The notes below the pieces were generated by a model that did not search any database, was not told where the DNA came from, and saw only the letters and a program-made list of their open reading frames with translations. A stretch of 64,000 nt of DNA. Origin: Escherichia coli. Lineage in GTDB: Bacteria; Pseudomonadota; Gammaproteobacteria; Enterobacterales; Enterobacteriaceae. Position numbers and translations under genes: made by a program. Where the stretch lies: assembly GCF_050920415.1 (NCBI RefSeq), contig NZ_CP169309.1; one strand, written 5' to 3'. This document shows, piece after piece, positions 30,933 to 54,234 of the stretch (within the stretch, counting starts at the first letter, position 1; every line of letters begins with the position of its first letter).

Positions 30933-32612
<1,680 letters not shown>

Positions 32613-32986: not shown

Positions 32987-34384
32987 ATGAAAATGGTCTC
33001 ACGTATTACCGCGATCGGCCTGGCTGGCGTCGCGATTTGCTATTTAGGGTTATCTGGTTATGTGTGGTACCACGATAATAAACGCAGTAAACAGGCCGAT
33101 GTTCAGGCATCTGCTGTCAGTGAAAATAATCAGGTTTTAGGTTTTCTTCGCGAAAAAGGATGCGACTATTGTCATACGCCTTCGGCAGAATTACCCGCCT
33201 ATTATTATATTCCTGGCGCGAAACAGTTGATGGATTACGACATTAAGCTTGGATATAAATCTTTTAACCTCGAGGCCGTGCGTGCGGCTCTGTTGGCAGA
33301 TAAACCCGTTTCGCAAAGCGATCTGAATAAGATTGAATGGGTGATGCAGTATGAAACTATGCCGCCAACGCGTTACACCGCGCTACACTGGGCGGGTAAG
33401 GTGAGTGATGAAGAGCGGGCGGAAATACTTGCCTGGATTGCAAAACAGCGCGCGGAATATTACGCCAGTAATGATACTGCTCCGGAGCATCGCAATGAAC
33501 CGGTGCAGCCTATTCCGCAAAAACTACCTACCGATGCGCAAAAAGTGGCGTTGGGTTTTGCGCTGTATCATGATCCCCGTTTATCGGCTGATAGCACCAT
33601 TTCATGTGCACATTGCCATGCGTTAAATGCGGGTGGCGTTGATGGCAGAAAAACGTCGATTGGTGTTGGTGGTGCCGTTGGACCGATTAACGCACCGACG
33701 GTATTTAACTCAGTATTTAACGTTGAGCAGTTCTGGGATGGTCGTGCGGCAACATTGCAGGATCAGGCGGGTGGACCGCCGTTGAACCCGATTGAAATGG
33801 CGTCGAAATCCTGGGACGAAATTATTGCTAAGCTGGAAAAAGATCCGCAGCTTAAAGCGCAGTTCCTCGAAGTCTATCCGCAAGGTTTCAGTGGCGAAAA
33901 TATTACTGATGCTATTGCTGAATTTGAGAAAACATTAATTACGCCGGATTCCCCATTTGATAAATGGTTGCGTGGAGATGAGAATGCGCTGACGGTGCAA
34001 CAGAAAAAAGGCTATCAATTATTTAAAGATAATAAATGTGCAACTTGTCATGGTGGTATTATTCTCGGCGGACGTTCTTTCGAGCCGTTGGGGCTGAAAA
34101 AAGACTTTAACTTTGGGGAAATTACGGCGGCGGATATTGGTCGTATGAATGTTACTAAAGAAGAGCGTGATAAATTGCGTCAGAAAGTACCCGGTTTACG
34201 TAACGTTGCTTTAACGGCACCGTACTTCCATCGCGGTGACGTGCCGACGCTGGACGGGGCGGTAAAACTGATGCTGCGCTATCAGGTAGGCAAAGAGCTG
34301 CCGCAGGAGGATGTGGATGATATCGTAGCTTTCCTGCACAGTCTGAACGGGGTATACACGCCGTATATGCGGGATAAACAATAA
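32987..34384 (+). CDS. ccp: Cytochrome c peroxidase Ccp (YhjA)
   Basis: 465 aa; several CxxCH haem-binding motifs (CDYCH, CAHCH, CATCH). Confidence 0.9.
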   Translation: MKMVSRITAIGLAGVAICYLGLSGYVWYHDNKRSKQADVQASAVSENNQVLGFLREKGCDYCHTPSAELPAYYYIPGAKQLMDYDIKLGYKSFNLEAVRAALLADKPVSQSDLNKIEWVMQYETMPPTRYTALHWAGKVSDEERAEILAWIAKQRAEYYASNDTAPEHRNEPVQPIPQKLPTDAQKVALGFALYHDPRLSADSTISCAHCHALNAGGVDGRKTSIGVGGAVGPINAPTVFNSVFNVEQFWDGRAATLQDQAGGPPLNPIEMASKSWDEIIAKLEKDPQLKAQFLEVYPQGFSGENITDAIAEFEKTLITPDSPFDKWLRGDENALTVQQKKGYQLFKDNKCATCHGGIILGGRSFEPLGLKKDFNFGEITAADIGRMNVTKEERDKLRQKVPGLRNVALTAPYFHRGDVPTLDGAVKLMLRYQVGKELPQEDVDDIVAFLHSLNGVYTPYMRDKQ

Positions 34385-34495
34385 TTAATTTGATCGCCCG
34401 AACAGGAATGTTTGGGCGATTTTTATTACGACAATAAAGTCTGTTTTTAATATTATCATGTTAAATGTTTATATTATAAAAAGTCGTTTTTCTGC

Positions 34496-34515
34496 TTAGG
34501 ATTTTGTTATTTAAA
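34496..34515 (+). promoter_or_regulatory. GAD box (GadE/RcsB binding site) upstream of gadA
   Basis: ttaggattttgttatttaaa, about 80 bp upstream of the gadA ATG; matches the 20-bp gad box consensus as I recall it. Confidence 0.7.
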
Positions 34516-34594
34516 TTAAGCCTGTAATGCCTTGCTTCCATTGCGGATAAATCCTACTTTTTTATTGCCTTCAAATAAATTTAAGGAGTTCGAA

Positions 34595-35995
34595 ATGGAC
34601 CAGAAGCTGTTAACGGATTTCCGCTCAGAACTACTCGATTCACGTTTTGGCGCAAAGGCCATTTCTACTATCGCGGAGTCAAAACGATTTCCGCTGCACG
34701 AAATGCGCGATGATGTCGCATTCCAGATTATCAATGACGAATTATATCTTGATGGCAACGCTCGTCAGAACCTGGCCACTTTCTGCCAGACCTGGGACGA
34801 CGAAAACGTCCATAAATTGATGGATTTGTCGATCAACAAAAACTGGATCGACAAAGAAGAATATCCGCAATCTGCAGCTATCGACCTGCGTTGCGTAAAT
34901 ATGGTTGCTGACTTGTGGCATGCGCCTGCGCCGAAAAATGGTCAGGCCGTTGGCACCAACACCATTGGCTCTTCCGAGGCCTGTATGCTCGGCGGGATGG
35001 CGATGAAATGGCGTTGGCGCAAGCGTATGGAAGCCGCAGGCAAGCCAACGGATAAACCTAATCTGGTGTGCGGCCCGGTACAAATCTGCTGGCATAAATT
35101 CGCCCGTTACTGGGATGTGGAGCTGCGTGAAATCCCTATGCGTCCCGGTCAGTTGTTTATGGATCCGAAACGCATGATTGAAGCCTGCGACGAAAACACC
35201 ATCGGCGTGGTGCCGACTTTCGGTGTGACCTACACCGGTAACTATGAATTCCCGCAACCGCTGCACGATGCACTGGATAAATTCCAGGCCGACACCGGTA
35301 TCGACATCGACATGCACATCGACGCCGCCAGCGGTGGCTTCCTGGCACCGTTCGTCGCCCCGGATATCGTCTGGGACTTCCGCCTGCCTCGTGTGAAATC
35401 GATCAGTGCTTCAGGCCATAAATTCGGTCTGGCTCCGCTGGGCTGCGGCTGGGTTATCTGGCGTGATGAAGAAGCGCTGCCGCAGGAACTGGTGTTCAAC
35501 GTTGACTACCTCGGTGGTCAGATTGGGACTTTCGCCATCAACTTCTCCCGTCCGGCGGGCCAGGTGATTGCACAATACTATGAGTTTCTGCGCCTCGGTC
35601 GTGAAGGCTATACCAAAGTACAGAACGCTTCCTACCAGGTTGCCGCTTATCTGGCGGATGAAATCGCCAAACTGGGGCCGTATGAGTTCATCTGTACCGG
35701 TCGCCCGGACGAAGGCATCCCGGCGGTTTGCTTCAAACTGAAAGATGGTGAAGACCCGGGATACACCCTCTACGACCTCTCTGAACGTCTGCGCCTGCGC
35801 GGCTGGCAGGTTCCGGCCTTCACCCTCGGCGGTGAAGCGACCGATATCGTGGTGATGCGCATTATGTGCCGTCGCGGCTTCGAAATGGACTTTGCTGAAC
35901 TGTTACTGGAAGACTACAAAGCCTCCCTGAAATACCTCAGCGATCACCCGAAACTGCAGGGTATAGCCCAGCAGAACAGCTTTAAACATACCTAA
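34595..35995 (+). CDS. gadA: Glutamate decarboxylase alpha GadA
   Basis: 466 aa from ATG 34595 ([24 protein letters not shown]...); AAGGAG SD at 34583-34588; adjacent to gadX, hence gadA rather than gadB. Confidence 0.93.
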
Positions 35996-36363
35996 TAACA
36001 TAATGTTGTAAAAACCGAATGCCCCGACCTTCAAAAACAGGTGGGGCATTCGGTTACTTATTAATGCAATAATATATTGGCTGTTTATTCATCGTGTTGA
36101 TAAGATATATGTTATATGAATGTTATTAAGGGTGGCGAGACCGTTTAATATCACAATAAGGGATTATTTGCTTACTAATAATTCCTCTGCGTTTTAAACG
36201 TCTTTTTTTGTATTATAAATCCAGTTATCCAGCCCGACTATCATCACACATCATCATCCTGTTTTCCCGCTTCGTTTAAATTTATTTATCAATCAATTTG
36301 ACTTAAGAGGGCGGCGTGCTACATTAATAAACAGTAATATGTTTATGTAATATTAAGCCGACT

Positions 36364-37188
36364 ATGCAATCACTACATGGTAATTGTCTAATTGCGTACG
36401 CAAGACATAAATATATTCTCACCATGGTTAATGGTGAATATCGCTATTTTAATGGCGGTGAACTGGTTTTTGCGGATGCAAGTCAAATTCAAGTGGATAA
36501 GTGTGTCGAGAATTTTGTATTAGTTTCAAGGGACACGCTTTCATTATTTCTCCCGATGCTCAAGGAGGAGGCATTAAATCTTCATGCACATAAAAAAGTT
36601 CCTTCGTTACTCGTTCATCACTGTACCAGAGATATTCCTGTTTTTCAGGAGGTTGCGCAACTATCGCAGAATAAGAATCTGCGCTATGCAGAAATGCTCC
36701 GTAAAAGAGCATTAATCTTTGCGTTGTTATCTGTTTTCCTGGAGGACGAGCAGTTTATACCGCTGCTTCTGAACGTTTTGCAACCGAACATGCGAACACG
36801 AGTTTGTACGGTCATCAATAATAATATCGCCCATGAGTGGACATTAGCCCAAATCGCCAGCGAGCTGTTGATGAGTTCAAGCCTGTTAAAGAAAAAATTG
36901 CGCGAAGAAGGTACGTCATATTCACAGTTGCTTACTGAGTGTAGAATGCAACGTGCTTTGCAACTTATTGTTATACATGGTTTTTCAATTAAGCGAGTTG
37001 CAGTGTCCTGTGGTTATCACAGCGTGTCGTATTTCATTTACGTTTTTCGAAATTATTATGGGATGACGCCCACAGAGTATCAGGAGCGATCAGCACAAGA
37101 ATTGCCGAACCGTGACTCGGTGGCAAGTATTGTTGCGCAAGGGAATTTTTACGGTACTAACTATTCTGCGGAAGAAATAAGATTATAG
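36364..37188 (+). CDS. gadX: AraC-family acid-resistance regulator GadX
   Basis: 274 aa with C-terminal AraC HTH. Confidence 0.92.
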   Translation: MQSLHGNCLIAYARHKYILTMVNGEYRYFNGGELVFADASQIQVDKCVENFVLVSRDTLSLFLPMLKEEALNLHAHKKVPSLLVHHCTRDIPVFQEVAQLSQNKNLRYAEMLRKRALIFALLSVFLEDEQFIPLLLNVLQPNMRTRVCTVINNNIAHEWTLAQIASELLMSSSLLKKKLREEGTSYSQLLTECRMQRALQLIVIHGFSIKRVAVSCGYHSVSYFIYVFRNYYGMTPTEYQERSAQELPNRDSVASIVAQGNFYGTNYSAEEIRL

Positions 37189-37203
37189 TTTTTACCCAGA
37201 CAT

Positions 37204-37309
37204 AAAAAAAACCCGGCATAGGGGACCGGGAAGAGGATAGTCTGCCGTCTCCAGACTAATAAACCGTTATAACACTCCCTGTTGGCACGGGAAACTTTGT
37301 GCTCTCAGT
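37204..37309 (-). ncRNA. gadY: GadY small RNA, antisense to the gadX 3' end
   Basis: Reverse complement begins actgagagcacaaagtttcccgtgcc and ends in a poly-U terminator (A-run 37204-37211 on plus). Ends are approximate. Confidence 0.6.
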
Positions 37310-37555
37310 AAGTTAAATATAACTTTTACTGGAGATAAGATCAGCCATTTTTTTATAAACATAAGCTATGCGCTGTGTGAAAATATATTCTTCTTGCATT
37401 TTCTTATTATCAATTAACTGTTATGTCAAACTACTTTTTGGATAACTTTTGGTCCTACCAAATATGGCAGTTTATGCACGAAGAAGCGGTCTGGCATCAT
37501 TTCATTAGTATACTGAAATTGAAATAATCGCAGTAATGAAATATAAGGGATAGTC

Positions 37556-38284
37556 ATGACTCATGTCTGCTCGGTGATCCTCGTTCGTCGTTCATTGGAT
37601 ATTCATCATGAACAGCAAAAAATATCGTTGCACAACGAAAGTATTCTACTGCTGGATAAAAATTTGGCAGACGATTTTGCGTTTTGTTCACCGGATACAC
37701 GACGACTGGATATCGATGAGCTGACAGTTTGCCATTACTTACAAAATATTCGTCAGTTACCGCGCAATTTAGGGTTACATAGCAAAGACCGTTTGTTAAT
37801 TAACCAGTCCCCGCCCATGCCTCTGGTGACGGCGATTTTTGATAGTTTCAATGAATCCGGAGTAAATTCGCCGATACTGAGCAATATGCTCTACCTTTCC
37901 TGTTTATCTATGTTTTCTCATAAGAAAGAACTAATCCCCTTACTTTTCAATAGTATCAGCACTGTTTCAGGAAAAGTTGAACGCCTTATTAGCTTTGATA
38001 TCGCTAAACGTTGGTATCTACGCGATATCGCGGAAAGAATGTATACCAGCGAGAGTCTCATCAAAAAAAAGTTGCAGGACGAAAATACCTGTTTCAGTAA
38101 AATATTACTCGCTTCCAGGATGTCGATGGCCAGACGATTACTCGAGTTACGTCAAATTCCTCTACATACTATTGCGGAAAAATGTGGGTATAGCAGTACG
38201 TCGTACTTTATAAACACATTTCGACAATATTATGGTGTAACGCCACATCAGTTTGCGCAACATTCGCCAGGTACCTTTTCCTGA
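37556..38284 (+). CDS. gadW: AraC-family acid-resistance regulator GadW
   Basis: 242 aa with AraC HTH. Confidence 0.92.
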   Translation: MTHVCSVILVRRSLDIHHEQQKISLHNESILLLDKNLADDFAFCSPDTRRLDIDELTVCHYLQNIRQLPRNLGLHSKDRLLINQSPPMPLVTAIFDSFNESGVNSPILSNMLYLSCLSMFSHKKELIPLLFNSISTVSGKVERLISFDIAKRWYLRDIAERMYTSESLIKKKLQDENTCFSKILLASRMSMARRLLELRQIPLHTIAEKCGYSSTSYFINTFRQYYGVTPHQFAQHSPGTFS

Positions 38285-38646
38285 CATATTTCGCATTTGA
38301 ATATTGGTCAGGATCTCACACGTGCTTCATGTGAAACTCTTCCCTGATGATTTCTGCCGGGCTACCGGCTAGTTCTCTTTCGCAGTATGCCAGGCGGTAT
38401 AGGTATTTTCAGGAGGAAAAGACTCGGCATGTTTGGGATTATTAAGCTGACAATTCATACGATTACGGGAATGTGGGTCAGTATTGTGCTGTTCAAATTG
38501 ATGACGAATGGCTGGAGTGGTTTTTACTTTCAGTGCTGTGTACTAAGCCTGGTATTCCTGACGGTTAGCTGGTTGTTGAGTGGTGAATGGTTAGCAGGAA
38601 AGAGTAAGGCTGAACCCTCACGTTCAACCTTACTCTCATTTACACG

Positions 38647-41600
38647 TTACGCTTTTTTAAAGCGGGCAAAGAGATGTTCCACTACAACGAAAAAGACTGG
38701 AACGAAGTAAATGGCCAGCACTGTTGCGGCAAACATCCCGCCCATCACGCCGGTACCTACCGCGTTTTGCGCGCCGGAACCGGCACCGTGGCTGATTACC
38801 AGCGGCAACACGCCGAGAATAAAGGCCAGAGAGGTCATCAGGATTGGGCGTAAACGCATCCGCGCCGCTTCGATGATTGCCTCTATCGGCGTTTTCCCTT
38901 CTTTCTGCATCATCTCAACGGCAAATTCGACGATCAGGATGGCGTTCTTGGCGGAAAGCCCGATGGTAGTCAGCAAACCAACCTGGAAGTAGACGTCATT
39001 ACTTAAGCCGCGCAGATCGGTGGCCAGTAATGCGCCAACGACACCTAACGGTACAACCAACATCACCGAGAACGGAATTGACCAGCTCTCATAAAGTGCG
39101 GCAAGGGCGAGGAACACCACGACCAGTGAAATGGCATACAGCGCGGGAGCCTGGTTTGAGGATAACGCTTCCTGATACGACAGTCCGGTCCACGAGTAGC
39201 CGACGCCTGCCGGAAGTTTAGCGACCAGGTCTGCCATAAATTTCATAGCGTCACCGGTACTTTTCCCGGCCGCCGCTTCACCTAAAATCTCCATTGACGG
39301 GATGCCGTTGTAGCGTTCCAGTCGCGGTGAACCATAGGTCCATTCGGTAGACGAATAGGCCGAAAGCGGTGCCATCGTGCCAGAGGCGTTGCGTACATAC
39401 CACTGGTTGATGTTATCCGGCAACATACGGAACGGCGTGCCTGCCTGGACATACACTTTTTTCACCCGCCCCTGGTTGAGGAAGTCGTTCACGTAGCTGC
39501 TGCCGAAGGCGGTGGAAATTGTCTGGTTGATATCAGACAGCGCCACACCCATTGCCTCGGCTTTCGCGGCGTTGACGTTCACTTTGAACATCGGCGTATC
39601 TTCCAGTCCGTTCGGGCGTACCCCGGTGACCTGATTCGGTGATTGCGCTGCCAGTGATAATAGCTCGTTTCGCGCCTGGGTCAGTTTTTCGTGCCCCAGG
39701 TTACCGTTGTCCAGCAGTTCCATATCAAAACCTGACGCGGTACCCAGTTCAGCCACCGCGGGTAAGTTGAACGGGAAGACGACGGCTTTATTGATACTGC
39801 TTAACGCAATCATTGCCCGCTGAATGATCGCGGTAACCGAGTTTTCCTCACCGACACGTTCAGACCACGGTTTGAGGCTGATAAACGCCAGACCGTTGTT
39901 TTGCCCCTGGCCACTGAAGCCAAAGCCGCCAACGGTAAACACCGACTGAACATTATCTTTCTCTTTTGTCAGATAATAATCAGTCACCTGTTGCAGCACT
40001 TTCTTGGTGTTAACCATGGTTGCACCGGAAGGTAACTGCGCGGTGGTCATAAATACCCCCTGATCCTCTTCTGGTAAGAAAGAGGTCGGCGTACGCAGGA
40101 ACAGCACCGCCATCCCGGCGCAAATCAGCAGGTAGACCACCATGTAGCGACCGGTACAACGCAACAGCGAGCGGGTGCTGTCGGTATAGTGATGAGTCGA
40201 TTTTTCAAACAGCGTGTTGAAGCGTGCGAACAGGGCGTTAGGTTTGTGACCGCCTTCCGGCGCGGCTTTCAGAATGGTGGCGCACAGGGCAGGGGTCAGG
40301 CTCATTGCCACAAATACTGAAAGCAGCATCGAGGAGATCAGCGTGATGGAGAACTGTCGGTAGATCTCCCCGGTTGCACCGCTCATAAAGGCCATCGGCA
40401 TAAACACTGCGGAAAGAACAACGGCAATCCCGACCAGCGCACGTTGGATCTGCCCCATCGATTTATGCGTCGCTTCCTTCGGCGGTAGTTTATCTTCCGC
40501 AATGACACGCTCGACGTTCTCCACCACCACGATGGCGTCATCCACCAGTAACCCTATCGCCAGCACCATCCCGAACATAGTTAACGTGTTGATGGTGAAA
40601 CCGACCGCCGACAAGATCGCAAACGTCCCGAGAATAACCACCGGTACGGCAATCGTCGGGATGATTGTGGCGCGGAAATTCTGCAAAAACAGATACATGA
40701 CCAGGAAGACGAGGATGATAGCCTCAACCAGCGTTTTGAAAACTTCCTGAATAGAAATTTTGATAAACGGTGTGGTGTCGTAAGGATAAACCGTCTTCAG
40801 GCTTGCGGGGAAATAAGCCGATAAACGGTTCAGCTCCTCTTTCACCGCTCGCGAGGTATCCAGGGCGTTTGCTCCGGTAGCCAGTTTGATGGCGATCCCG
40901 GCAGCAGGTTTGCCGTTATAGCGCGCCACGGTGGAATAATCTTCCGCCCCAAGTTCGACGCGGGCGACATCACGCAGCAGTACTTGCGAACCATCTTGCT
41001 GAACTTTCAACAGGATTTTGCCAAATTCTTCCGGCGTTTGCAGACGCGTCTGCACAATGATCGAGGCGTTCAGTTGCTGGTCTGCCGCCTGTGGCATGCC
41101 ACCCAGTTGACCACCAGAAATCTGGTTGTTTTGCACCTTAATCTGGGAAATAACATCGGAAGGTACCAGGTTGTATTTATTGAGTTTTTGCGGGTCCAGC
41201 CAGATACGCATGGCATACTCGGAACCAAAGAGTTGTACGCTACCAACGCCCGCGGTACGGCTTAGCGGGTCTTTGATATTAGACGCTACATAGTCCGCGA
41301 TATCGTACTGGTTGAGACTGCCGTTATCAGAAATAAACGCCGCTACCATCAGGATATTACTGCTCGACTTATCGACGCTAATACCCTGCTGCTGCACCGC
41401 TTCAGGTAATGAAGGCATAGCGAGTTGCAGTTTATTTTGCACCTGAACCTGCGCGATATCAGGCGATGTCCCCGTCTCGAAGGTCAGAGTGATGGAGGCA
41501 TTACCCGCCGCATCGCTGGTTGAAGACATGTACATCAGGCCATCAAGCCCATTCATATTTTGCTCAATCACCTGAGTGACCGAGTCTTCTACCGTTTGCG

Positions 41601-41760
41601 CATCGGCACCCGGATAGGTTGCGCTGACGGTAATGGTTGGTGGCGCAATCTGCGGATATTGCGCAACCGGTAAGTTCATGATCGCCAGACCACCTGCAAG
41701 CATCATAATAATGGCAAGTACCCAGGCAAAAACCGGGCGATCAATAAAATAGTTAGCCAT
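38647..41760 (-). CDS. mdtF: RND multidrug efflux pump MdtF
   Basis: 1037 aa, AcrB-like. Confidence 0.93.
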
Positions 41761-41784
41761 GAAAGTCCCCTTAAGCCTGCAACG

Positions 41785-42942
41785 TTATTGTTTCGATTCG
41801 GTGCTGGCGTTTTCCTGGCTGGAGGAAATTGCACGTGCTTTGATACCCGGATGAATACGTTGCAAACCGGAAACGATCACCCGATCGCCAGCCTGCAAGC
41901 CAGAGGTGACAACCCACTGGTCACCGATGGCTTTGCTGGCTTCGATTTCGCGTAGCTGCACGACATCGTCTTTATCCAGAATGAGTGCCGTTGCTTTACC
42001 CTGGGCGTTGTGGGTGACGCCTTCCTGCGGCACCAGTAATACATTCTGGCGGCTACCTTCATCCACTAATGCCGTGACATACATACCTGGCAGCAAATCA
42101 CCATTGGGATTGGGGAAAATTGCCCGTAAGGTCACGGACCCCGTGGTTTCATCCACCGTCGGGTCGGAGAATTTCAGCGTGCCGGTCTGGCTGTAACGTT
42201 TACCATTTTCCAGATTGAGCTGTACTGGCGTACTGCCCTGAACCTGTTTGATTTGTCCACTGGCGACCTCTTCTTTCATGCGCAAAAAATCCTGCACCGA
42301 CTGCGTGAGATCGACATAAATCGGGTCCAGACGTTGCACGGTAACCAGTGAATCGGCTTGATTAGCGGTAACGAGTGCGCCGACGGTCACCGATGATTTT
42401 CCGCTGACGCCCGTAATCGGCGAGGTGACATTCGCGTATTGCAGGTTGATAGTCGCCTGTTCAACAGCCGCTTTGGCGACGGTGACATTGGCTTCTGCTT
42501 CATTCAGCTGGGTGCGTGCGGTGTCGTAATCCTGACGGCTAACGTAGTTGGTCTTCAGCAATGATGCCTGGCGGTTAAAGGTGATGCGGGCATTGCTGGC
42601 GGTTGAGAGTGCTTTCGCCAACGAGCCTTTGGCGGAGTTTAGATCGGCCTGTAAAGGCGCAGGATCAATCTGATACAGCGAATCGCCCTGGTTCACTTTA
42701 TCGCCTTCGATAAAGTTGCGTTTAATGATAATACCGCCCACCTGGGGGCGTATCTCGGCAACTTCATAAGGAACGGTTCTACCGGGCAATTCGCTCAACA
42801 CATTGACCGAACCGGGGGAGAGTGTGACGACACCGACCTCAGGCGTCATGGCGGCGGCGTTTTCCGTCGATTTGTCATCGCAGGCGGTGAGCATCGCGCC
42901 GCAGAATAACAACGGTATTAACAGTTTTCTTCTTCTGTTCAT
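41785..42942 (-). CDS. mdtE: RND efflux membrane fusion protein MdtE (lipoprotein)
   Basis: 385 aa; lipobox LTAC. Confidence 0.92.
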   Translation of the reverse strand: MNRRRKLLIPLLFCGAMLTACDDKSTENAAAMTPEVGVVTLSPGSVNVLSELPGRTVPYEVAEIRPQVGGIIIKRNFIEGDKVNQGDSLYQIDPAPLQADLNSAKGSLAKALSTASNARITFNRQASLLKTNYVSRQDYDTARTQLNEAEANVTVAKAAVEQATINLQYANVTSPITGVSGKSSVTVGALVTANQADSLVTVQRLDPIYVDLTQSVQDFLRMKEEVASGQIKQVQGSTPVQLNLENGKRYSQTGTLKFSDPTVDETTGSVTLRAIFPNPNGDLLPGMYVTALVDEGSRQNVLLVPQEGVTHNAQGKATALILDKDDVVQLREIEASKAIGDQWVVTSGLQAGDRVIVSGLQRIHPGIKARAISSSQENASTESKQ

Positions 42943-43280
42943 TTTAGTCCCTGAAAATTCTTGAGATATAACGGTTCTTTAAATTGCGCGCGAGGAGAGG
43001 TATGAGGGATTTACAGACCAGCGGCATAGTGGGGTTGTCAGCCAGTAAGATGGGATGCAAGCACAGTGATCGACATGGTGAGGTCAACGACAAAAAAAAT
43101 GTTGCCGTTCTGCCAACAGTTCCTGCCAGCATTCGGGCAACGAAGGGTTCTACTGGTGGATACACATACCAGGGGAATAAAGTCGTTTTCGCCTCTCCTT
43201 TAGTCATCACCGGGGATAATGAAATCAGCATCTGCATCCCTCTTCATGCCTGCCATCATTTTCAGTTAATTATGTCCTGA

Positions 43281-43808
43281 CTAAAAATAAGATGTGATAC
43301 CCAGGGTGACGATGTCGCTCATACGTCTTAGTTTCAGCTTGTACATAATGTTGAATTTCTGAATCTTTAATGTTTGTTGCGAAATATTGAGCGTTGACGT
43401 GATATTGCTTTCGTTTTTGTTTTTCAGAATTAGCTGCATAATTTTGAACTGATTATGTGAAAAACATAATTGTGAATTCTTATGAGGCAAGTGTTTACCA
43501 TAAGTAATCTCAAGAAGATTTTTGATACTTTCTTTGCGGCTGACAAAATAAATAGGCGCTTTAGCTTTTAGTTTACTGATGTGATAAGGTGCCAAAACAA
43601 TAATTCTCTCGGCGTCTAATTTCTCCAGAAATTTAATCGCTTCTTCATCAAGGATATGGTTGTGATAGGTATCAATGATAACCTTGAAGGGTTTATTACC
43701 TACTTTTTTGATCTCTGACAGGGAATTGATTTTTATCATTTCGTGATTATCTTTCAACTGCCAAAAGCCCTGTAAAAGAAAAGAATCTTTCGTCATGAGA
43801 AAAATCAT
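43281..43808 (-). CDS. gadE: LuxR-family acid-resistance activator GadE
   Basis: 175 aa, MIFLMTKDSFLLQGFWQLKDNHEM... Confidence 0.92.
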   Translation of the reverse strand: MIFLMTKDSFLLQGFWQLKDNHEMIKINSLSEIKKVGNKPFKVIIDTYHNHILDEEAIKFLEKLDAERIIVLAPYHISKLKAKAPIYFVSRKESIKNLLEITYGKHLPHKNSQLCFSHNQFKIMQLILKNKNESNITSTLNISQQTLKIQKFNIMYKLKLRRMSDIVTLGITSYF

Positions 43809-44606
43809 AACTTACTCCTTAGCCGTTATCGTTTCGAACATGTCATCCTTTTCATTATTTACATCCCTGTCCGAATCGTTGTTCAATATAGTAAACGCCT
43901 ATAAGAACCTTGCCCTTCGTGAACTAATACGTCTATTAACACTAATCAATACTTCAGATTTATCCATCACGCACTCCATATATTGATCCTAAGTAAAATT
44001 CCTGGTTGTTATCAGATTGTAAGCTGCAAACAAAAAATTAACGTTTGCGGATTACTGCCCAAGAATAAGTTATCAATAACCAGTTTGTGATCTCTGAAGA
44101 ATATTACTAAAGTTAAAATGTAATCCGATTTAAATATCGAGTCTCCTTGTTTCGACTTAAGCTGGCAATTGGATTGCCAGCTTTCTTTTAACGCATTGAA
44201 ATTACCTGAGTAAATAACTCATTCATGTCTTCAGGTTTTTATATAGCGTCTGGAGACACGGATATTTATGCAATGTAATCAACGCCAGTTGCAAAAAAAT
44301 GAACCCGGATTACTTATTTAACCGCCCATAGCATCAACGTTTACGGAACTCTTTGTTCACTTTCCCACAGCACTTTTAAAACATTAAACCTGACTACGGA
44401 AAATATCAGCCATGATAATGTTTGAAATGGCTAATTTGCCATGCAATGAAAAAAATCAGATAAAATTCAGTAGGTTGAAATACTCATCAGCAGGTAATTA
44501 TTTCAATGATAGCGCGCAATTGATCTAAAATGCTGTGTAGCGGAGAGAGTATTAATTGGATCATAGTCACATCAAGTGACTATGATCCAGGTGGCAATAG
44601 GGATAA
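43809..44606. promoter_or_regulatory. Extended AT-rich gadE upstream regulatory region
   Basis: Roughly 800 bp of AT-rich non-coding DNA upstream of gadE; known in E. coli as a multi-promoter sensory region. Confidence 0.6.
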
Positions 44607-45179
44607 TTATTGCTTTTTAACAAACAAACTGGCGAAGCTGAACAGGCTAGCGGCGCTAAATATCAGTTCAATTCCCACTAGTGTGGAAACCAGCGTTACA
44701 GAAACCATCGGCGTTGCACCAAGGAATATCCAGGCAATGACGATATCCAGCACACCAATAACGAGCTGTAGCCAACTGCCTTTCATTGAACGCTGACGAT
44801 ACCAACTCATCAGACGAATAACTCCTGCCACACAGAACAAACCGGCAATAAATGCCGCAATGGCAAAAATGCCCAGCTCCGGTGCGCGGATGAAGAAATA
44901 GCCGATCAATAAATAGGCGACTGCGACGAGGAAACCGGATAATACCGGCCAGAAATTATGACTGCGGTTGCTGAATAGCCCGACAATAAGCGCAATGCCC
45001 GAGCAGATTAATAATGCACCCACTACTGTGCTTAAAATGTCGCCAGAGACGAACGGAAAACTGATACACAGCAACCCGACGATAAACAGCAGCACGGCAA
45101 TAAACTGGATTGCTCTGCGATGTTTTTTAAGCATCTCCAGATCAAACTTCAAAATTGTTGCCTTATCTATATATAACAT
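44607..45179 (-). CDS. hdeD: Acid-resistance membrane protein HdeD
   Basis: 190 aa, multi-TM. Confidence 0.9.
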   Translation of the reverse strand: MLYIDKATILKFDLEMLKKHRRAIQFIAVLLFIVGLLCISFPFVSGDILSTVVGALLICSGIALIVGLFSNRSHNFWPVLSGFLVAVAYLLIGYFFIRAPELGIFAIAAFIAGLFCVAGVIRLMSWYRQRSMKGSWLQLVIGVLDIVIAWIFLGATPMVSVTLVSTLVGIELIFSAASLFSFASLFVKKQ

Positions 45180-45433
45180 AGAACCACCCTATAAAATTAA
45201 GAAGAAAATCCCCTGCTATCAATCTATGCCAAAAACGCGTCTAAGAATGCAGTCGATTTAATAAAAATTTCCTAATTACAGTATCTGATGCATCTGTAAC
45301 TTATTGTATTGAAATAAAAATATCTGATTTTGATATTTTCCATCAACATGACATATACAGAAAACCAGGTTATAACCTCAGTGTCGAAATTGATTCGTGA
45401 CGGCTCTTTCACTTTATAGTTGAGGATATTACG

Positions 45434-45766
45434 ATGAAAAAAGTATTAGGCGTTATTCTTGGTGGTCTGCTTCTTCTGCCAGTTGTGAGCAATGCAGCGG
45501 ATGCGCAAAAAGCAGCTGATAACAAAAAACCGGTCAACACCTGGACCTGTGAAGATTTTCTGGCTGTGGACGAATCCTTCCAGCCAACTGCAGTTGGTTT
45601 TGCTGAAGCACTGAACAATAAAGATAAACCAGAAGATGCGGTTTTAGATGTTCAGGGTATTGCAACCGTAACCCCAGCGATCGTTCAGGCTTGTACTCAG
45701 GATAAACAAGCCAACTTTAAAGATAAAGTTAAAAGCGAATGGGACAAAGTTAAGAAAGATATGTAA
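45434..45766 (+). CDS. hdeA: Periplasmic acid-stress chaperone HdeA
   Basis: 110 aa with signal peptide. Confidence 0.93.
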   Translation: MKKVLGVILGGLLLLPVVSNAADAQKAADNKKPVNTWTCEDFLAVDESFQPTAVGFAEALNNKDKPEDAVLDVQGIATVTPAIVQACTQDKQANFKDKVKSEWDKVKKDM

Positions 45767-45881
45767 TTCCGGGAATACGTTACATCGTACTTCCTTGCAT
45801 ATTGAACAGGTAGGAATACCTTCTTCAAAAGCAGCTATTCCTTCTGTTCATATTTAATCTCTATATTGAATGGGTTACAAA

Positions 45882-46208
45882 ATGAATATTTCATCTCTCC
45901 GTAAAGCGTTTATTTTTATGGGCGCTGTAGCGGCTTTGTCACTGGTGAACGCACAATCTGCGCTGGCAGCCAATGAATCCGCTAAGGATATGACTTGCCA
46001 GGAATTTATTGATCTGAATCCAAAAGCAATGACACCGGTTGCGTGGTGGATGCTGCATGAAGAAACAGTTTATAAAGGTGGTGATACTGTTACTTTAAAT
46101 GAAACCGATCTTACTCAAATTCCTAAAGTGATCGAATACTGCAAAAAAAATCCGCAGAAAAATTTGTATACTTTCAAAAATCAAGCATCTAATGACTTGC
46201 CGAATTAA
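45882..46208 (+). CDS. hdeB: Periplasmic acid-stress chaperone HdeB
   Basis: 108 aa from ATG 45882 (MNISSLRKAFIFMGAVAALSLVNAQSALA...). Confidence 0.9.
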   Translation: MNISSLRKAFIFMGAVAALSLVNAQSALAANESAKDMTCQEFIDLNPKAMTPVAWWMLHEETVYKGGDTVTLNETDLTQIPKVIEYCKKNPQKNLYTFKNQASNDLPN

Positions 46209-46271
46209 TGGGGCACAAGTAAAAAGGAGTAGCAAGTTGAGCCATCTTGCTGCTCCTTTTTGCATTTTTAT

Positions 46272-46919
46272 ATGACAGCAGAATTTATTATACGTCTTAT
46301 ACTCGCGGCAATTGCCTGTGGCGCTATTGGCATGGAAAGGCAAATGCGCGGCAAAGGAGCAGGGTTACGCACACATGTATTAATTGGCATGGGAAGCGCC
46401 CTGTTTATGATTGTTTCGAAATATGGTTTTGCTGACGTGCTGTCTTTAGATCACGTCGGACTGGACCCCAGCCGTATTGCTGCTCAGGTAGTGACGGGTG
46501 TTGGGTTTATCGGTGCGGGTAACATTCTTGTTCGTAACCAAAATATTGTGGGTCTGACGACGGCAGCCGATATCTGGGTGACTGCCGCCATTGGTATGGT
46601 TATTGGTAGCGGTATGTACGAACTGGGTATTTATGGTTCAGTGATGACCTTGCTGGTGCTGGAAGTCTTTCATCAATTAACCTTCCGCCTGATGAATAAA
46701 AATTACCATTTACAGCTGACATTAGTGAACGGTAATACGGTATCAATGCTCGACTGGTTTAAGCAGCAAAAAATAAAAACGGATTTAGTTTCGTTGCAGG
46801 AAAATGAAGATCATGAAGTGGTCGCCATTGATATCCAGCTTCATGCCACGACGTCGATAGAAGATCTGTTGCGATTATTAAAAGGTATGGCAGGGGTGAA
46901 AGGCGTTTCAATTAGCTAA
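46272..46919 (+). CDS. yhiD: MgtC-family inner-membrane protein YhiD
   Basis: 215 aa from ATG 46272 (MTAEFIIRLILAAIACGAIGMERQ...). Confidence 0.88.
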   Translation: MTAEFIIRLILAAIACGAIGMERQMRGKGAGLRTHVLIGMGSALFMIVSKYGFADVLSLDHVGLDPSRIAAQVVTGVGFIGAGNILVRNQNIVGLTTAADIWVTAAIGMVIGSGMYELGIYGSVMTLLVLEVFHQLTFRLMNKNYHLQLTLVNGNTVSMLDWFKQQKIKTDLVSLQENEDHEVVAIDIQLHATTSIEDLLRLLKGMAGVKGVSIS

Positions 46920-46961
46920 TCTGTGTGGTAGCGAAATCACACTCGCCACCCTACTGGAAAT

Positions 46962-47492
46962 TCACACCAGATAATCAATATGCTGATGGCGTACCAACTC
47001 ATTGATCCGCTTAAGATTGAGGATCATCATGATATTGTGTTTATGGCAGTAGAACGTTTTTAGCGATATTTTCAGTTTCTCCAGAATATCTTCCGTTGTC
47101 ATTTGATTCGCAATGCAGCTTAGAACCTGATGCTGCTTGCGCGAAAGGGACACATCCGCTTCAGGCACAGAGCAGTAACTGCCATTGATGAGTGCGACAA
47201 AGTCGATGATGGTGATAGTTCGCGGAACAAAGGTCACCGGTACTTTCCCCAGGCAGCGTTTAATATTAAAGGGAGAGAAAATAATCACATGGACAGGTTT
47301 TAATCGTTCAATCTGAGTGAGCAAATTAGAATGAAATACATTATTCATTAATGTATCAATAATGACGAAGGCATGCTGATGCAACATTACGTCGATCTCT
47401 TCTTCGTTCTGTATATGAACGACATTACCTTTGCTCAGAATGTTTTTCATCGCAGTGAAGAACATCGTATCCCTGGTAATTATAAGAAACAT
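46962..47492 (-). CDS. dctR: LuxR-family regulator DctR (YhiF)
   Basis: 176 aa. Confidence 0.88.
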   Translation of the reverse strand: MFLIITRDTMFFTAMKNILSKGNVVHIQNEEEIDVMLHQHAFVIIDTLMNNVFHSNLLTQIERLKPVHVIIFSPFNIKRCLGKVPVTFVPRTITIIDFVALINGSYCSVPEADVSLSRKQHQVLSCIANQMTTEDILEKLKISLKTFYCHKHNIMMILNLKRINELVRHQHIDYLV

Positions 47493-47647
47493 AACCGACT
47501 CCTGGTGCGGACATTAACTTTATAATCAGTTTGCCAAAGGTAATTAACAGGACAGGGCTTATAATAATAATAGTTAGCTGGCTGTGTATTAATTTAATGT
47601 AATGCATGATGCAGATGCTGAGAAAGCATCTGCATCTCTCGGTGGTG

Positions 47648-48214
47648 TTATTTGACCAGCTCAGGTGTTACTTGACTCACCGCATTGGTGTAGTAAGGCG
47701 CGCCCCAGCCCGGTTCCGGCCAGAATGCACCATAGCCGTAATCCCACAGGTTATAGGTGGTATTAACCACTTCTCTCAAATGCCACACCTGGATTCCCTG
47801 CATATTCACTTCCAGGAAGTTATACGGGACTTTATTGATAAAGCCAGGTTGTTCACCCTGAATGGTACCGAGGATGGTAACAAAGTGATTACGATAGTTC
47901 ACTGGATCAAGGAAGCCGCTTTGTCTGGCGAGCAGTCGGCCCTGATAGTTGGCTTCAATATCAGGCTTCGCATAGCTATCCAACGGTAATACAGCGATTT
48001 CTAACAACGTATCCGTTTTGCCATTGATAACGTTGATAACCTTCCCGCCAAAGCGCGCTTGTTGACCAACATATAACCCCGGCTGGTTATGAACAGCAAC
48101 AAAACTTTTTTGAATATCAGGTTGGTTATTGCCTTTGATATTTTGCGGAATTGAACTACATGCGGCAAGCAAAAATGAAAGGCTGAGGATGAGTGCACCT
48201 TTTGTCATGTTCAT
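47648..48214 (-). CDS. slp: Starvation-inducible outer-membrane lipoprotein Slp
   Basis: 188 aa from the minus-strand ATG at 48214 (MNMTKGALILSLSFLLAACSS, lipobox LAAC); the listed ORF extends 73 codons upstream. Confidence 0.88.
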   Translation of the reverse strand: MNMTKGALILSLSFLLAACSSIPQNIKGNNQPDIQKSFVAVHNQPGLYVGQQARFGGKVINVINGKTDTLLEIAVLPLDSYAKPDIEANYQGRLLARQSGFLDPVNYRNHFVTILGTIQGEQPGFINKVPYNFLEVNMQGIQVWHLREVVNTTYNLWDYGYGAFWPEPGWGAPYYTNAVSQVTPELVK

Positions 48215-48459
48215 GTTACTATCCTTATCAACAAATATTAAAACCATAATAGATATTTCTTTATAGTTTTCATCTGATTCTGAGGCGATATGCCTGATAG
48301 TAACGTAAACCTGTCTGATGTTTATATCCCTTCTGTTTAGTTTTATTCTGTTAATTTTGGGGCGTGACATGAGTATCCATCGCCCCATAAAATAGCCTTT
48401 TTTTAAAGGTACATAAAATCTATTTTTATTCAATACTTATAAAGCGCTAATGTTCAATA

Positions 48460-49683
48460 TTATGGGGTTATATTCTGGTAATGATTTGATAAGCGAATTC
48501 TTTTGCCAGTTGGTATTTCTATTTCCACCCCATAATTTATAGTTTTTTCATCAGGTAGCGATCTCTTTAAATAAGGTGCGTATGACATTTTTTTAGGATG
48601 AAACGTATCGTGTTGAAATATTTCGAATTGATATTCAGACATTTCTGCCCATGTTTGAATTTTATTGTATCGGGAGAGTGTCGTAAAGGCTTTAACTTGC
48701 TTATAACATTGTTTTTGGAATTCTTGCTGATATTTTATTATGTCGTTGTATGAAAGATTATTTACCCTGGTTTCTAATAATTCTATTATTGTCGAAGCAA
48801 TTTCCGCTTTTGCTCTTAAAGAGTTGTCATTAATGGTTAATAATGTTGAAAATAAACCATTGATTTGTTTGTCAACATATTGTTCATCTTTATGTAATTT
48901 TGTGATAGGGTTTTCCTTATGTGAAAAAATAGTATCAAATAAATTTGCGTCAGTGAAGTTTACATTAAGTAGATCTTCGAAATAAAACCTTGACAAGGTT
49001 AGAACGAACCCGGACAGGTCCTGTCCTGTCATATTGAAATCAATAAAGTTGGTTCCAGCAAAGACTTTCATCCTGTTTTCATTTTTACTGTGCTCAATAT
49101 ACAACCTTGTCATTTTTTGGTACAAGCGTTGAATATCTTTTATATCAGTTGGTAGATCAGTTCGTTGCCCAGAAAAATTTTTATTTTCGGAAGAAACGGT
49201 TTGGACACTGAATCTTACTGGTATTCCCTCTTCTACGAGAATTTTAGTTATGATTGGCTTATTGGGCTTAGGATTAAAGACAACAATGATTTTAGATTCA
49301 GAGTTTTTATTCTTTTCGTATCTAATGTTATTAATCTGATTAAGTATTGATTGTGTCTGTTGCGTAAGTGGTGTCGAACTTATCGTTTCAATGTTATTAA
49401 TAAGTTTTACAAGTTGAGCCACAACTTTTGAGTAGTCTGCATTTGTATATGTGGTGTTCGTGTGGCACGCATTAATTTGTTGGAGTTGTTGTTTCGCTAA
49501 ATCAAATTGTTCAGCGTTATATCCTTCTTCAGACAATGAAAAATTAACGGGTTGCTGTTCTTCCTGATTATCACAAGGCCACATCGGTGTGTTTGGTGTT
49601 TTAACATTGTCGGTATCTGTTGTGCGGTTATAAATATCGCCGTGATATGTGTTTATCATACCTGGGGTAAAGTCAATTGACAT
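48460..49683 (-). CDS. AT-rich hypothetical protein, 407 aa, possibly an uninterrupted yhiS ortholog
   Basis: Low-GC ORF rich in N, K and Q; segment [41 protein letters not shown] resembles pentapeptide-type repeats. Sits between slp and the ars region, where K-12 has an IS5-disrupted yhiS. Confidence 0.6.
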
Positions 49684-50263
49684 AACATTCCTTATTGTTC
49701 ATCTATTTCGCTAAATTTTTGCAAATCGGAGAATTAGAACAGGAATGGATTTTCTTCTACGCGGAAATAAACACAATGCGTCATATCTTCCTGATATAAT
49801 TACCTTTAACTTCCCTTTCATTTCCACCCGGTAATATTTGTGTATAAAAAAAGGGCAGTGATAGTATCGTAAAGGAAAACATTAACAACTATCAAAAAGC
49901 GCTCATTTTAAAAAGTTATGATGTTCTCCGATAGTGTGTGAAGTGATATTTTTGTGATGTTTTAGATGTGTAATAATGAACCAGGTTGAAGTGTATTTAA
50001 AAATGTGTTGTATTGGCGACTGAAATCTGCCCTTTAAAAGGGGGGATAGCACTGAGACAAAGAGGCATTGCTTCTCCGATAAAATGTCAGAGAAGCATGA
50101 TTGCGTGGTGATTGTCGATTGATGACTTACTGACGGATCCGTCATCATTCTCAAAGCATTAGTTAAGTTATTTGTGATTTTTAAGGATTATCCTATCTAT
50201 GATTTTCTACTCAGAAGGATAAGACACTCACAATGCTCCTTATAGTTTACTGCTGGCATCTAT

Positions 50264-51277
50264 TTAAAATAGCATTTGAGTCAAATAGCCCATCAAGATA
50301 GCCATACCTAAGATAACCGTCAGGAATGCAACTATCATCGGTATTCTGAACATTGATTTAAGTAATATCACTTCCGTCAGGCTTGCTCCGGCACTGCCGA
50401 TGATTAATGCCATTAATGCTCCCGGACCCATTCCTTTTGTCATCAGAACAGATGCCAGAGGGATAACCGCCTCTGCCCGGATATACAGCGGGATTCCGAC
50501 AACGGCGCTCAATGGGATGGCGAAGGGATTATCTGCCCCTGCATGAGCGGCAATCCACTCTGAGGGAATAAAGCCATAAATAAAAGAGCCTATTAATACC
50601 CCTAACAAAAGATATGGCAGTACATCTTTAAACTGTTGCAACGCATCTTTGGTGGCTAGTTTTATGGGATTAATACTTACCACAGCTTTGGTACTGCAAC
50701 AGTTTACTACAGGTTTCTCAATGGCTTTAGCCGCTGGACTACAGCAACTCACTTTTATTGGCGTATAAGTCGTCCCCGGCGAAGTTTTGGCTGGAGAGCA
50801 ACAATTTGCTGATGAGCTTTTACTGGCAATGATATGACGTTCAAATCTCAGAGAATCCAGGATAATACTGGCAAGTACGGAGACGCCGGCGGCGATAATC
50901 GCGTACAACAAGGTAACTTTCCAACCAAAGGTCACCCACATTAACCCGACGATAATGGGATTAAGTAACGGTGAAACAAATAAAAAAGTGAGAGTCGGAC
51001 CAAACCCGGCTTTCGCTGACAACAATCCACGTAGCATGGGTATTGTCGAGCAACTACAGAACGGGGTAACGGCTCCCAACAGAGCAGCCAGGAGATAGCC
51101 TCTCCCTTTTCTGGCCCCCATCATCTGCTGGATTTTATGGTCTGGCACCTTTTGTCTTATCAGGCTGACACCGGCACTAATCACTATAAACAGCAAAGAA
51201 AGCTCGACGGCGAGAAACACAAACATCTCTGCGGCATCTTGCAGCATCGCAAGCCAACTACTCATAAGTAACCTCAT
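50264..51277 (-). CDS. Cysteine-rich polytopic permease of the DUF318/ArsP-like type (putative metalloid or organoarsenical efflux permease)
   Basis: 337 aa with multiple TM segments; TPFCSCSTIP motif; central hydrophilic loop with three vicinal Cys pairs (NCCS, SCCS, NCCS). Divergent from an ArsR-family regulator. Confidence 0.7.
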   Translation of the reverse strand: MRLLMSSWLAMLQDAAEMFVFLAVELSLLFIVISAGVSLIRQKVPDHKIQQMMGARKGRGYLLAALLGAVTPFCSCSTIPMLRGLLSAKAGFGPTLTFLFVSPLLNPIIVGLMWVTFGWKVTLLYAIIAAGVSVLASIILDSLRFERHIIASKSSSANCCSPAKTSPGTTYTPIKVSCCSPAAKAIEKPVVNCCSTKAVVSINPIKLATKDALQQFKDVLPYLLLGVLIGSFIYGFIPSEWIAAHAGADNPFAIPLSAVVGIPLYIRAEAVIPLASVLMTKGMGPGALMALIIGSAGASLTEVILLKSMFRIPMIVAFLTVILGMAILMGYLTQMLF

Positions 51278-51289
51278 TGAATAAAACTA

Positions 51290-51311
51290 TATTTCCAGAA
51301 TAATCGAAATA
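51290..51311. promoter_or_regulatory. Candidate operator, palindrome 1, in the permease/regulator divergent intergenic region
   Basis: TATTTC-N10-GAAATA dyad (tatttccagaataatcgaaata). Confidence 0.4.
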
Positions 51312-51324
51312 AAGTTCAGATCAA

Positions 51325-51350
51325 GATATTTCTGGTATTATCGAAATATC
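51325..51350. promoter_or_regulatory. Candidate operator, palindrome 2
   Basis: GATATTTC-N10-GAAATATC with perfect 8-bp inverted arms, 37 bp centre-to-centre from palindrome 1 and about 25 bp upstream of the regulator ATG. Confidence 0.45.
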
Positions 51351-51372
51351 AACCAGACAGAGGGGGTGACAC

Positions 51373-51693
51373 ATGCAATTGGAAGAGGTCGCTAAGGCAC
51401 TGAAAGAGTTAGGTCATCCGACCCGTTTGTTCATATTTAAGCATCTGGTCAAAGCGGGGGAACAAGGTTTGCCGGTCGGTGAGTTGCAAAAGCAGCTTGG
51501 GATACCCGGCTCTACACTCAGTCACCATATTTCAGCACTGGTATCGGTAGGGTTGGTCAAACAAAACCGTGAGAGTCGGACGCTGATGTGTGTTTCGCAA
51601 TACGCAATGCTGGAAGCGATAATTGAATTCTTACGTGAGGAGTGCTGCGTAAACAGCAAAACAGATAGCGAAGGAGCCACGAAGAACAAATAA
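51373..51693 (+). CDS. ArsR/SmtB-family winged-helix transcriptional regulator (accessory, second ArsR-type gene)
   Basis: 106 aa; LGHPTRLFIFKHL...PGSTLSHHISALVSVGLV is a typical ArsR HTH; C-terminal cysteines (LMCVSQ...EECCVN) rather than the helix-3 CVC site; AGGGGG SD before the ATG. Confidence 0.75.
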   Translation: MQLEEVAKALKELGHPTRLFIFKHLVKAGEQGLPVGELQKQLGIPGSTLSHHISALVSVGLVKQNRESRTLMCVSQYAMLEAIIEFLREECCVNSKTDSEGATKNK

Positions 51694-51708
51694 GGGGGCA
51701 TATCCCCC
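51694..51708. terminator. Compact bidirectional terminator between the accessory regulator and arsC (convergent)
   Basis: gggggcatatccccc hairpin flanked by T-rich sequence on both strands in a 20-bp convergent gap. Confidence 0.45.
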
Positions 51709-51713
51709 TATAG

Positions 51714-52139
51714 TTATTTCAGGCGTTTACCCGCTTCATCAACCACTTTCTCGCCATCTTCCTTGGTGAACGCGCCTTGTTGCGCATCTGGCAGAATTTC
51801 CAGCACGACTTCTGAAGGGCGGCACAGGCGAGTTCCCAGCGGCGTCACCACAATCGGGCGATTAATCAGAATCGGGTGCTGAAGCATAAAGTCGATTAAC
51901 CGATCGTCAGTAAATTTATCTTCTGCAAGGCCCAGTTCCTCATACGGCTCGACGTTTTTACGCAACAGCGCGCGTACGGAAATCCCCATATCGGCAATGA
52001 GTTTGACCAGCTCATCGCGCGTTGGCGGTGTTTCCAGATAATAGATAATGGTCGGTTCTGTACCGCTGTTGCGGATCATCTCCAGCGTATTACGCGACGT
52101 GCCGCAGGCCGGGTTGTGATAAATAGTAATGTTGCTCAT
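51714..52139 (-). CDS. arsC: Arsenate reductase ArsC (glutaredoxin-type)
   Basis: 141 aa, MSNITIYHNPACGTSRNTLEMIR... Confidence 0.93.
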   Translation of the reverse strand: MSNITIYHNPACGTSRNTLEMIRNSGTEPTIIYYLETPPTRDELVKLIADMGISVRALLRKNVEPYEELGLAEDKFTDDRLIDFMLQHPILINRPIVVTPLGTRLCRPSEVVLEILPDAQQGAFTKEDGEKVVDEAGKRLK

Positions 52140-52151
52140 ATCAGTATCTCA

Positions 52152-53849: not shown

Positions 53850-54000
53850 ATTGCGCTCCTGATTGTTGCACTTAGTGTCTCTCTTCGAAGCGGATAAGTC
53901 AAAAACATATATGTTTTAACGAATGCATAAGTGCAAAAGTAAGTAATAGGTGTGAATTTTGAGTTGGGTATTCATTTGAAAGGAAGGCTGAATCAGGATG

Positions 54001-54083: not shown

Positions 54084-54234
54084 GGTTCAATACTATTAGC
54101 CAGTGGCTAACATTGCAAGCGTTAGCGATTTCTTCAGCTGGCGAAGGGACAGTTTGCTATACATGGTGGTGAAAGAGGATTGATATACTTTCATCGGGTC
54201 GCTGCCGTACCAAGCCTTGTCCGAATCCGGACGT

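Follow-up and report, generated by a model that had tools for sequence, protein, structure and literature searches.

A chu-less acid fitness island of mosaic base composition between ccp and gor in a genome of Escherichia coli

The window considered here, a stretch of 64,000 nucleotides (nt) from contig NZ_CP169309.1 of an Escherichia coli genome (assembly GCF_050920415.1), carries at positions 34496–48214 what we identify, with high confidence, as the canonical acid fitness island (AFI) of this species, in the form that lacks the chu haem uptake genes. The island is complete and uninterrupted, is specific to E. coli and closely related members of Escherichia and, by analogy with the characterised system, would confer and regulate glutamate-dependent acid resistance. 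The AFI has been defined previously (PMC5799925 and PMC9144400, citing Hommais 2004, Mates 2007 and Tramonti 2008), and gene calls were taken from the annotation of three RefSeq records and of K-12 MG1655, placed on the window via exact sequence matching. The order and orientation of K-12 are kept throughout, viz. gadA, gadX, gadY, gadW, mdtF, mdtE, gadE, hdeD, hdeA, hdeB, yhiD, dctR and slp, and all 12 island proteins are encoded by intact open reading frames (ORFs) of K-12 length, with 94.5–100% amino acid identity to their K-12 counterparts. The distance from the start of gadA to the start of slp (34595–48214) is 13,620 bp, the same span that is tabulated for the MG1655 island (PMC9144400). 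When the segment 34000–52500 was used as a megablast query against 5,426 complete E. coli genomes, all except one (5,425) were matched, 5,378 of them with at least 80% query coverage.

Continuity of the island is best judged between yhiD and dctR, where in other strains, e.g. Z0117EC0005, about 9 kb of chu/shu genes are found. Here these two convergent genes are separated by a spacer of 42 bp (46920–46961) which is unoccupied by chu genes, and a 901-bp probe that spans the junction aligns without a break in 3,173 of the 5,420 complete E. coli genomes that it matches and is split in the rest (~41%). Because the short spacer is present and the unbroken junction is the commoner state, the window carries the majority, K-12-like, chu-less form of the AFI.

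The binding site for GadE, known as the GAD box, lies upstream of gadA at 34496–34515 (+) and reads TTAGGATTTTGTTATTTAAA, an exact 20-mer that is identical to the published GadE site (PMC4918353) and is the sole match in the 64 kb at up to three mismatches, with none expected from shuffled sequence. The surrounding 210-bp spacer between ccp and gadA is identical to K-12 at 208 positions (99.0%), against 96.4% nucleotide identity for gadA itself. A GadX/GadW-box-like site with three mismatches to the motif AtGtcTGATtTttatattat, taken from PMC4918353, is found further upstream at 34437–34456 (+), and a second such site at 45320–45339; these are the only two matches in the window, where none is expected. 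A terminator-like hairpin of ccp occupies 34392–34421, within the left junction of the island (34385–34421, +). A promoter scan of 34300–34700 returned three weak sites against 1.5 expected and picked out no convincing gadA promoter. The original prediction had named this DNA as an AFI contiguous from gadA to slp with an intact GAD box, and in each of these respects, including the position of the box, it is borne out by the gene content, order, orientation, protein lengths and identities, by the span, by the undisturbed yhiD–dctR gap and by the exact copy of the published site.

Reading from the left, the island opens with the glutamate decarboxylase gene gadA (34595–35995, +; guanine plus cytosine (GC) content 0.540, GC at third codon positions (GC3) 0.625, codon adaptation index (CAI) 0.58), whose product is 100% identical to that of K-12. 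This is followed by two AT-rich regulatory genes of the AraC family, the activator gadX (36364–37188, +; GC 0.410) and gadW (37556–38284, +; GC 0.407). Between them, antisense to the 3′ end of gadX, is the small RNA gadY (37199–37312, −), matched by Rfam RF00122 at 150 bits against a gathering score of 45, with K-12 gadY aligning to 37204–37309 at 100% identity. The efflux genes are mdtF, encoding an RND permease (38647–41760, −; GC 0.531, GC3 0.620), and mdtE, encoding the membrane fusion protein (41785–42942, −; GC 0.534, GC3 0.596). The spacer between gadE and mdtE holds the small RNA gadF/ES205 (43092–43182, −), in which K-12 gadF is present at 100% identity and Rfam RF02754 (ES205) matches 43092–43163 (−) at 105 bits. 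On the opposite strand of this spacer the NCBI annotation pipeline (PGAP) places a 92-amino-acid ‘hypothetical protein’, WP_001205315.1 (43002–43280, +), which lacks a match in Pfam and probably represents an over-annotation.

The master activator, a LuxR-family protein with the GAD box as its binding site, is encoded by gadE (43281–43808, −; GC 0.333), again with a protein 100% identical to that of K-12. Its upstream control region covers 798 bp (43809–44606) at 35.6% GC and includes arrS, which is antisense to the gadE leader (44120–44189, +) and has 100% identity to K-12 arrS; an entry in the reference list of PMC4918353 refers to a 750-bp ‘sensory integration region’. The genes hdeD, for an acid-resistance membrane protein (44607–45179, −), yhiD, for an MgtC/SapB-family membrane protein (46272–46919, +), dctR (yhiF), for a LuxR-type regulator (46962–47492, −), and slp, for the starvation outer-membrane lipoprotein (47648–48214, −), were assigned by annotation and comparison with K-12, and hdeA (45434–45766, +) and hdeB (45882–46208, +) encode the periplasmic acid-activated chaperones, with GC3 of 0.34–0.35. 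The island is flanked on one side by ccp/yhjA (32987–34384, +), the stop codon of which ends at 34384, and treF (30933–32582, −). Beyond slp are yhiS (48460–49683, −), an AT-rich orphan gene of 407 codons that is adjacent to, and outside, the island, and a variable module of an ArsP_1-family permease (PF03773; 50264–51277, −) and an ArsR/SmtB regulator (51373–51693, +). Beyond 51693 come arsC, arsB, arsR, agrAB and dinQ, and then the flank gene gor (54728–56080, −).

The borders of the AFI, and its acquisition, are read most directly from comparison with related genomes. With the gor protein as query, syntenic loci were collected from 80 species-representative genomes, and the proteins of the window were mapped onto these loci, 77 of which are non-Escherichia and one of which is Salmonella (S. 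enterica subsp. arizonae); E. fergusonii is not among them. At this syntenic locus no AFI gene stands beside gor in any of the 77 non-Escherichia Enterobacteriaceae, while within 10 kb downstream of gor treF is found in 51 of them and ccp in nine. In the arizonae genome, gor is followed by about 5.5 kb of unrelated DNA and then treF, with no AFI, ccp or ars genes, so that the prediction of an acquired island absent from Salmonella agrees with what is seen at this site. The cleanest junctions are in Citrobacter sp. Awk 4 and C. amalonaticus, where homology stops at window positions 54728 and 54720 respectively, i.e. at the stop codon of gor, and resumes at 34387 and 34377, at the stop codon of ccp, with a gor–ccp gap of 73 bp in the former and 42 bp in the latter. 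Since homology breaks at the two stop codons with so little between them, the extra DNA in E. coli amounts to 20.3 kb (34388–54727), lying between the 3′ ends of ccp and gor.

That the AFI is instead ancestral to the Enterobacteriaceae and was lost repeatedly outside Escherichia is highly improbable, as this would require very many independent and precise deletions, whereas none of the 77 loci, which come from many genera, keeps any AFI gene at the site and the gor–ccp junction in Citrobacter is clean. No support for such losses was found, a patchy distribution being seen for ccp alone (present in the nine loci, almost all from Citrobacter, and absent from Salmonella and Klebsiella). Gain of the island within Escherichia has been described previously (PMC5799925), and it is this reading that the junctions favour. 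The ccp gene has features of its own: its GC3 of 0.451 is 3.2 standard deviations (SD) below that of the flank genes, and the loci in which it lies beside gor do not include those of Enterobacter either. Possibly ccp was acquired earlier, and patchily, at the same hotspot.

Within Escherichia, the 20.3-kb block can be divided further. In Escherichia sp. MOD1-EC7003 the dinQ side (54562) is joined directly to 48574, in E. albertii homology resumes at 48327, and in E. coli E69 arsC (51704) is joined to 48329, so that three other Escherichia lineages have neither yhiS nor the permease/ArsR pair in the interval from gor/ars to slp. Owing to these joins, the slp upstream region (48215–48574) contains the right junction, the island proper runs from 34388 to ~48330, very near the limits given in the original prediction, and yhiS, the permease/ArsR pair and ars are separate additions. 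The block is thus modular, with three pieces of different phylogenetic spread: the island proper; yhiS with the permease/ArsR pair; and arsRBC with agrAB and dinQ. There are no tRNA genes in the 64-kb window, no direct repeats were found at the island boundaries in a repeat search (the sole repeats there being the paralogous agrA/agrB/dinQ units at 53990–54517), and no integrase is among the annotated genes between ccp and gor; for these reasons the AFI is not a classical mobile or integrative island.

Base composition gives a different picture of the borders. The whole of 34496–48214 has a GC content of 45.7%, compared to a window mean of 50.0% and 52–53% in the flanks. For individual genes the reference was a set of 28 flank genes (GC3 mean 0.596, SD 0.046, range 0.50–0.655; treF 0.609 and gor 0.621), together with CAI weights drawn from 29 K-12 ribosomal-protein and translation-factor genes; a chi-square-per-codon distance was inflated for short genes (yhjB, arsR, uspB), and GC3 and CAI were used instead. 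On this scale gadA, mdtF and mdtE deviate by less than 0.6 SD from the flank-gene means in both GC and GC3, and these three core-like genes (GC3 0.60–0.63) make up 5673 of the 13,719 bp, or 41% of the span. The other nine island genes are AT-rich (GC 0.33–0.46, GC3 0.34–0.51; Mann-Whitney p = 6e-6 versus flank genes), and GC3 is 0.30–0.45 in gadX, gadW, hdeA, hdeB, yhiD and the neighbouring yhiS. The CAI is low in gadX and gadW (0.27–0.28) and high in hdeA (0.61). Intergenic DNA averages 36.9% GC within the island versus 43.4% in the flanks (Mann-Whitney p = 0.008), with 29.0% upstream of gadA and 32.3% between hdeD and hdeA.

Likelihood-ratio segmentation (threshold 40, where the maximum in shuffled sequence was 15) resolves two AT-rich domains, 35981–38712 (39.5% GC) and 43255–51453 (39.1%), separated by a core-like domain of 53.1% GC that covers mdtFE (38713–43254). 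No change point is placed at 34496 or at 48214, and the second AT-rich tract overruns slp by 3.2 kb, to ~51450, covering yhiS and the permease/ArsR pair. The composition is therefore a mosaic, in which two AT-rich segments of regulatory and chaperone genes are interleaved with core-like gadA and mdtEF. GC content and codon usage are far from uniform across the window, as had been anticipated, but the description of the island as one compositionally distinct block does not survive the core-like genes, the three domains and the lack of change points at its ends. The accompanying claim, that the non-coding DNA and the 407-codon ORF are more AT-rich than core genes such as treF or gor, stands for the ORF (yhiS, 33.3% GC, GC3 0.30) and for the intergenic DNA of the island relative to that of the flanks; the coding sequences of treF and gor are not a like-for-like comparison for non-coding DNA, and the intergenic difference is smaller than they would imply.

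Could the island nevertheless have arrived as a single foreign, AT-rich block from gadA to slp, possibly including the 407-codon ORF? Its lower overall GC than the flanks, the nine of 12 genes with GC3 under that of nearly all flank genes and the absence of the island from the syntenic loci of other genera would all fit. We nonetheless consider this quite unlikely, as gadA, mdtE and mdtF are indistinguishable from flank genes in composition, the segmentation gives three domains with no boundary at slp, the three Escherichia lineages that have slp–dctR and lack yhiS and the permease pair indicate that these are not the same unit, and E. fergusonii is reported to have a non-syntenic copy of the island without gadA (PMC5799925). 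This last observation fits with the core-like composition of gadA at the island edge, and together these points suggest that the island was put together from parts that differ in origin, or in their degree of amelioration, rather than imported as one compositionally uniform piece.

A further explanation is that AT-richness is kept mainly for regulation, as platforms for H-NS silencing and long control regions, rather than persisting as a relic of foreign origin, in which case composition would say little about acquisition. Several features are in keeping with this: GC is lowest in promoter and control regions, namely upstream of gadA, in the gadE region and between hdeD and hdeA; the ccp–gadA spacer is better conserved relative to K-12 than gadA; and H-NS has been reported as bound widely over the island in genome-wide chromatin immunoprecipitation data (cited in bioRxiv 10.64898/2026.02.10.705075). 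On the other hand, the low GC3 of gadX, gadW, hdeA, hdeB, yhiD and yhiS sits at synonymous coding positions, and the comparative absence of the island independently shows it to be lineage-specific DNA. We regard regulation as the main cause as possible, though not the explanation that we would favour, and it and foreign origin are in any case not mutually exclusive.

The identification as a complete, lineage-specific AFI of mosaic composition has some points to set against it. Acid resistance, GadE binding and H-NS occupancy in this strain are transferred from the K-12 literature, and the absence from Salmonella is that of one genome, of subsp. arizonae, viewed at the syntenic locus. Stepwise assembly draws on composition and one published observation in E. 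fergusonii, and for the core-like character of gadA and mdtEF there are other possible causes: amelioration, selection acting on genes with high expression (as the CAI of gadA might indicate) or gene conversion with gadB.

How the island would work in this strain can be proposed from these characterised systems. GadA is expected to decarboxylate glutamate, which, as is established for the enzyme, would consume one cytoplasmic proton per glutamate. GadE, with GadX and GadW, would activate gadA via the GAD box and the neighbouring GadX/W sites, and would likewise control hdeAB, hdeD, slp–dctR and gadE–mdtEF. The motif-like sequences at 34437–34456 and 45320–45339 are predicted to be of the kind to which GadX and GadW bind, and the GadY small RNA probably acts on the gadX–gadW transcript. 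HdeA and HdeB would shield periplasmic proteins at low pH. Finally, H-NS on the AT-rich parts may silence the island until inputs from EvgA–YdeO, RpoS or GadX/W relieve it, the domains at 35981–38712 and 43255–51453 being the expected H-NS platforms.

All of these elements, i.e. the island, its regulators, the GAD box, the chu polymorphism and the restriction to Escherichia, are already published, and the finding is an ordinary one: to find a complete island of the K-12 type in this strain is a clean check with little further import. The modest addition is the explicit mismatch at this locus of compositional borders with comparative ones. GC content fails to delimit the AFI, and composition-based island callers would place its borders wrongly here, because 41% of the span is core-like and an AT-rich tract runs beyond the end of slp.

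The only other item at the locus that is even mildly notable is the rapid evolution of yhiS. In this window it is an intact frame of 1,224 nt, and it has no significant family match in Pfam, NCBIfam or PADLOC. Among 1.84 billion representative proteins, a full HMMER scan matched only its own cluster, fragments thereof and one generic pentapeptide-repeat protein (over residues 178–250), a PDB sequence search gave a weak pentapeptide-repeat match (E = 0.0037), and a short pentapeptide-repeat-like stretch is present at residues 207–254; an AlphaFold2 model, built on a 20-sequence alignment, had a mean predicted local distance difference test score of 40.3 and is unusable. Named homologues are from E. 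coli or Shigella only, at 63–96% protein identity. The allele of the window is only 80–90% identical at the nucleotide level to that in 4,615 of 5,416 genomes (85%), while the 18.5 kb around it is at 95–99% identity in 5,418 genomes. Four intact alleles are all 1,224 nt in length, with 0.01–0.13 non-synonymous substitutions per site (dN), 0.02–0.31 synonymous ones (dS) and dN/dS of 0.38–0.65; among the neighbours, dN is zero for slp, and dN/dS is at most 0.12 for dctR and 0.06–0.24 for the permease. The gene is also often a pseudogene, being interrupted by IS5 in K-12 and frameshifted in 55989 and WL297. That yhiS encodes a functional, fast-diversifying, Escherichia-restricted protein, possibly surface-exposed or secreted with a short pentapeptide-repeat β-helix, and with balancing or diversifying selection retaining its deep alleles next to the acid-resistance genes, is an improbable interpretation.

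Some other features of the window may be recorded. The divergently transcribed ArsP_1 permease/ArsR pair (50264–51693), between yhiS and arsC, has at least 80% coverage in 2,219 of the 5,426 complete genomes, and relatives on plasmids were found at 364 places with 80–90% identity; in the closest record an IS2 is inserted in the permease. The agrA/agrB/dinQ repeat units are spaced at ~234 bp with 82–88% identity, and two AgrB-type Rfam matches adjoin dinQ, as in K-12. Near the left end, 555–2304 holds four tandem ldr/rdl type I toxin–antitoxin units with a period of 483–484 bp and 96% identity, comprising four Rfam rdlD matches and four intact Ldr ORFs of 35 amino acids. The closest RefSeq record has five such copies, and K-12 presumably has a single ldrD/rdlD at this locus. 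At the right end, an IS621-like transposase gene of the IS110 family (63293–64000, +) runs off the window; relative to the closest record, NZ_CP169399.1, it has a 1-bp indel that shifts the frame near 63697, reflecting a genuine frameshift or else a difference in sequencing. Over 30174–58379 the strain is unusually far from K-12 (94.6–96.5% nucleotide identity), and only one of the 5,426 complete genomes, MFDS1022581, is at least 99% identical over 34000–52500; this suggests that the lineage is rare or that the segment is recombinant.

In comparison with known systems, the island resembles tRNA-linked islands, e.g. the locus of enterocyte effacement at selC, in being lineage-specific, in having parts of low GC and, from the literature, in being silenced by H-NS, but it has no tRNA gene, annotated integrase or flanking direct repeats, and is inserted between the 3′ ends of ccp and gor. 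The AFI of E. fergusonii (PMC5799925) has nearly the full gene set, but it is reported without gadA and the haem genes and lies elsewhere in the genome. The islands with chu/shu, found in E. coli O157:H7, E. albertii (PMC5799925 for both) and many B2, D and E strains, share the acid-resistance genes and flanks with that described here and differ in their ~9 kb of chu genes, where this strain has its unbroken 42-bp spacer; in EDL933 the island with chu measures 22.7 kb (PMC9144400). The closest counterpart is the AFI of K-12 MG1655, with which the island shares all 12 protein genes, the small RNA genes gadY, gadF and arrS, gene order and orientation, the span and the GAD box, as well as both flanks (ccp/treF and ars/gor). 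Relative to it, there is 3–4% nucleotide divergence (96.5% identity for slp–yhjB and 94.6% for gor–ars, i.e. gor to arsC), and here yhiS is intact rather than split and the 1.4-kb permease/ArsR module, which K-12 lacks, is present.

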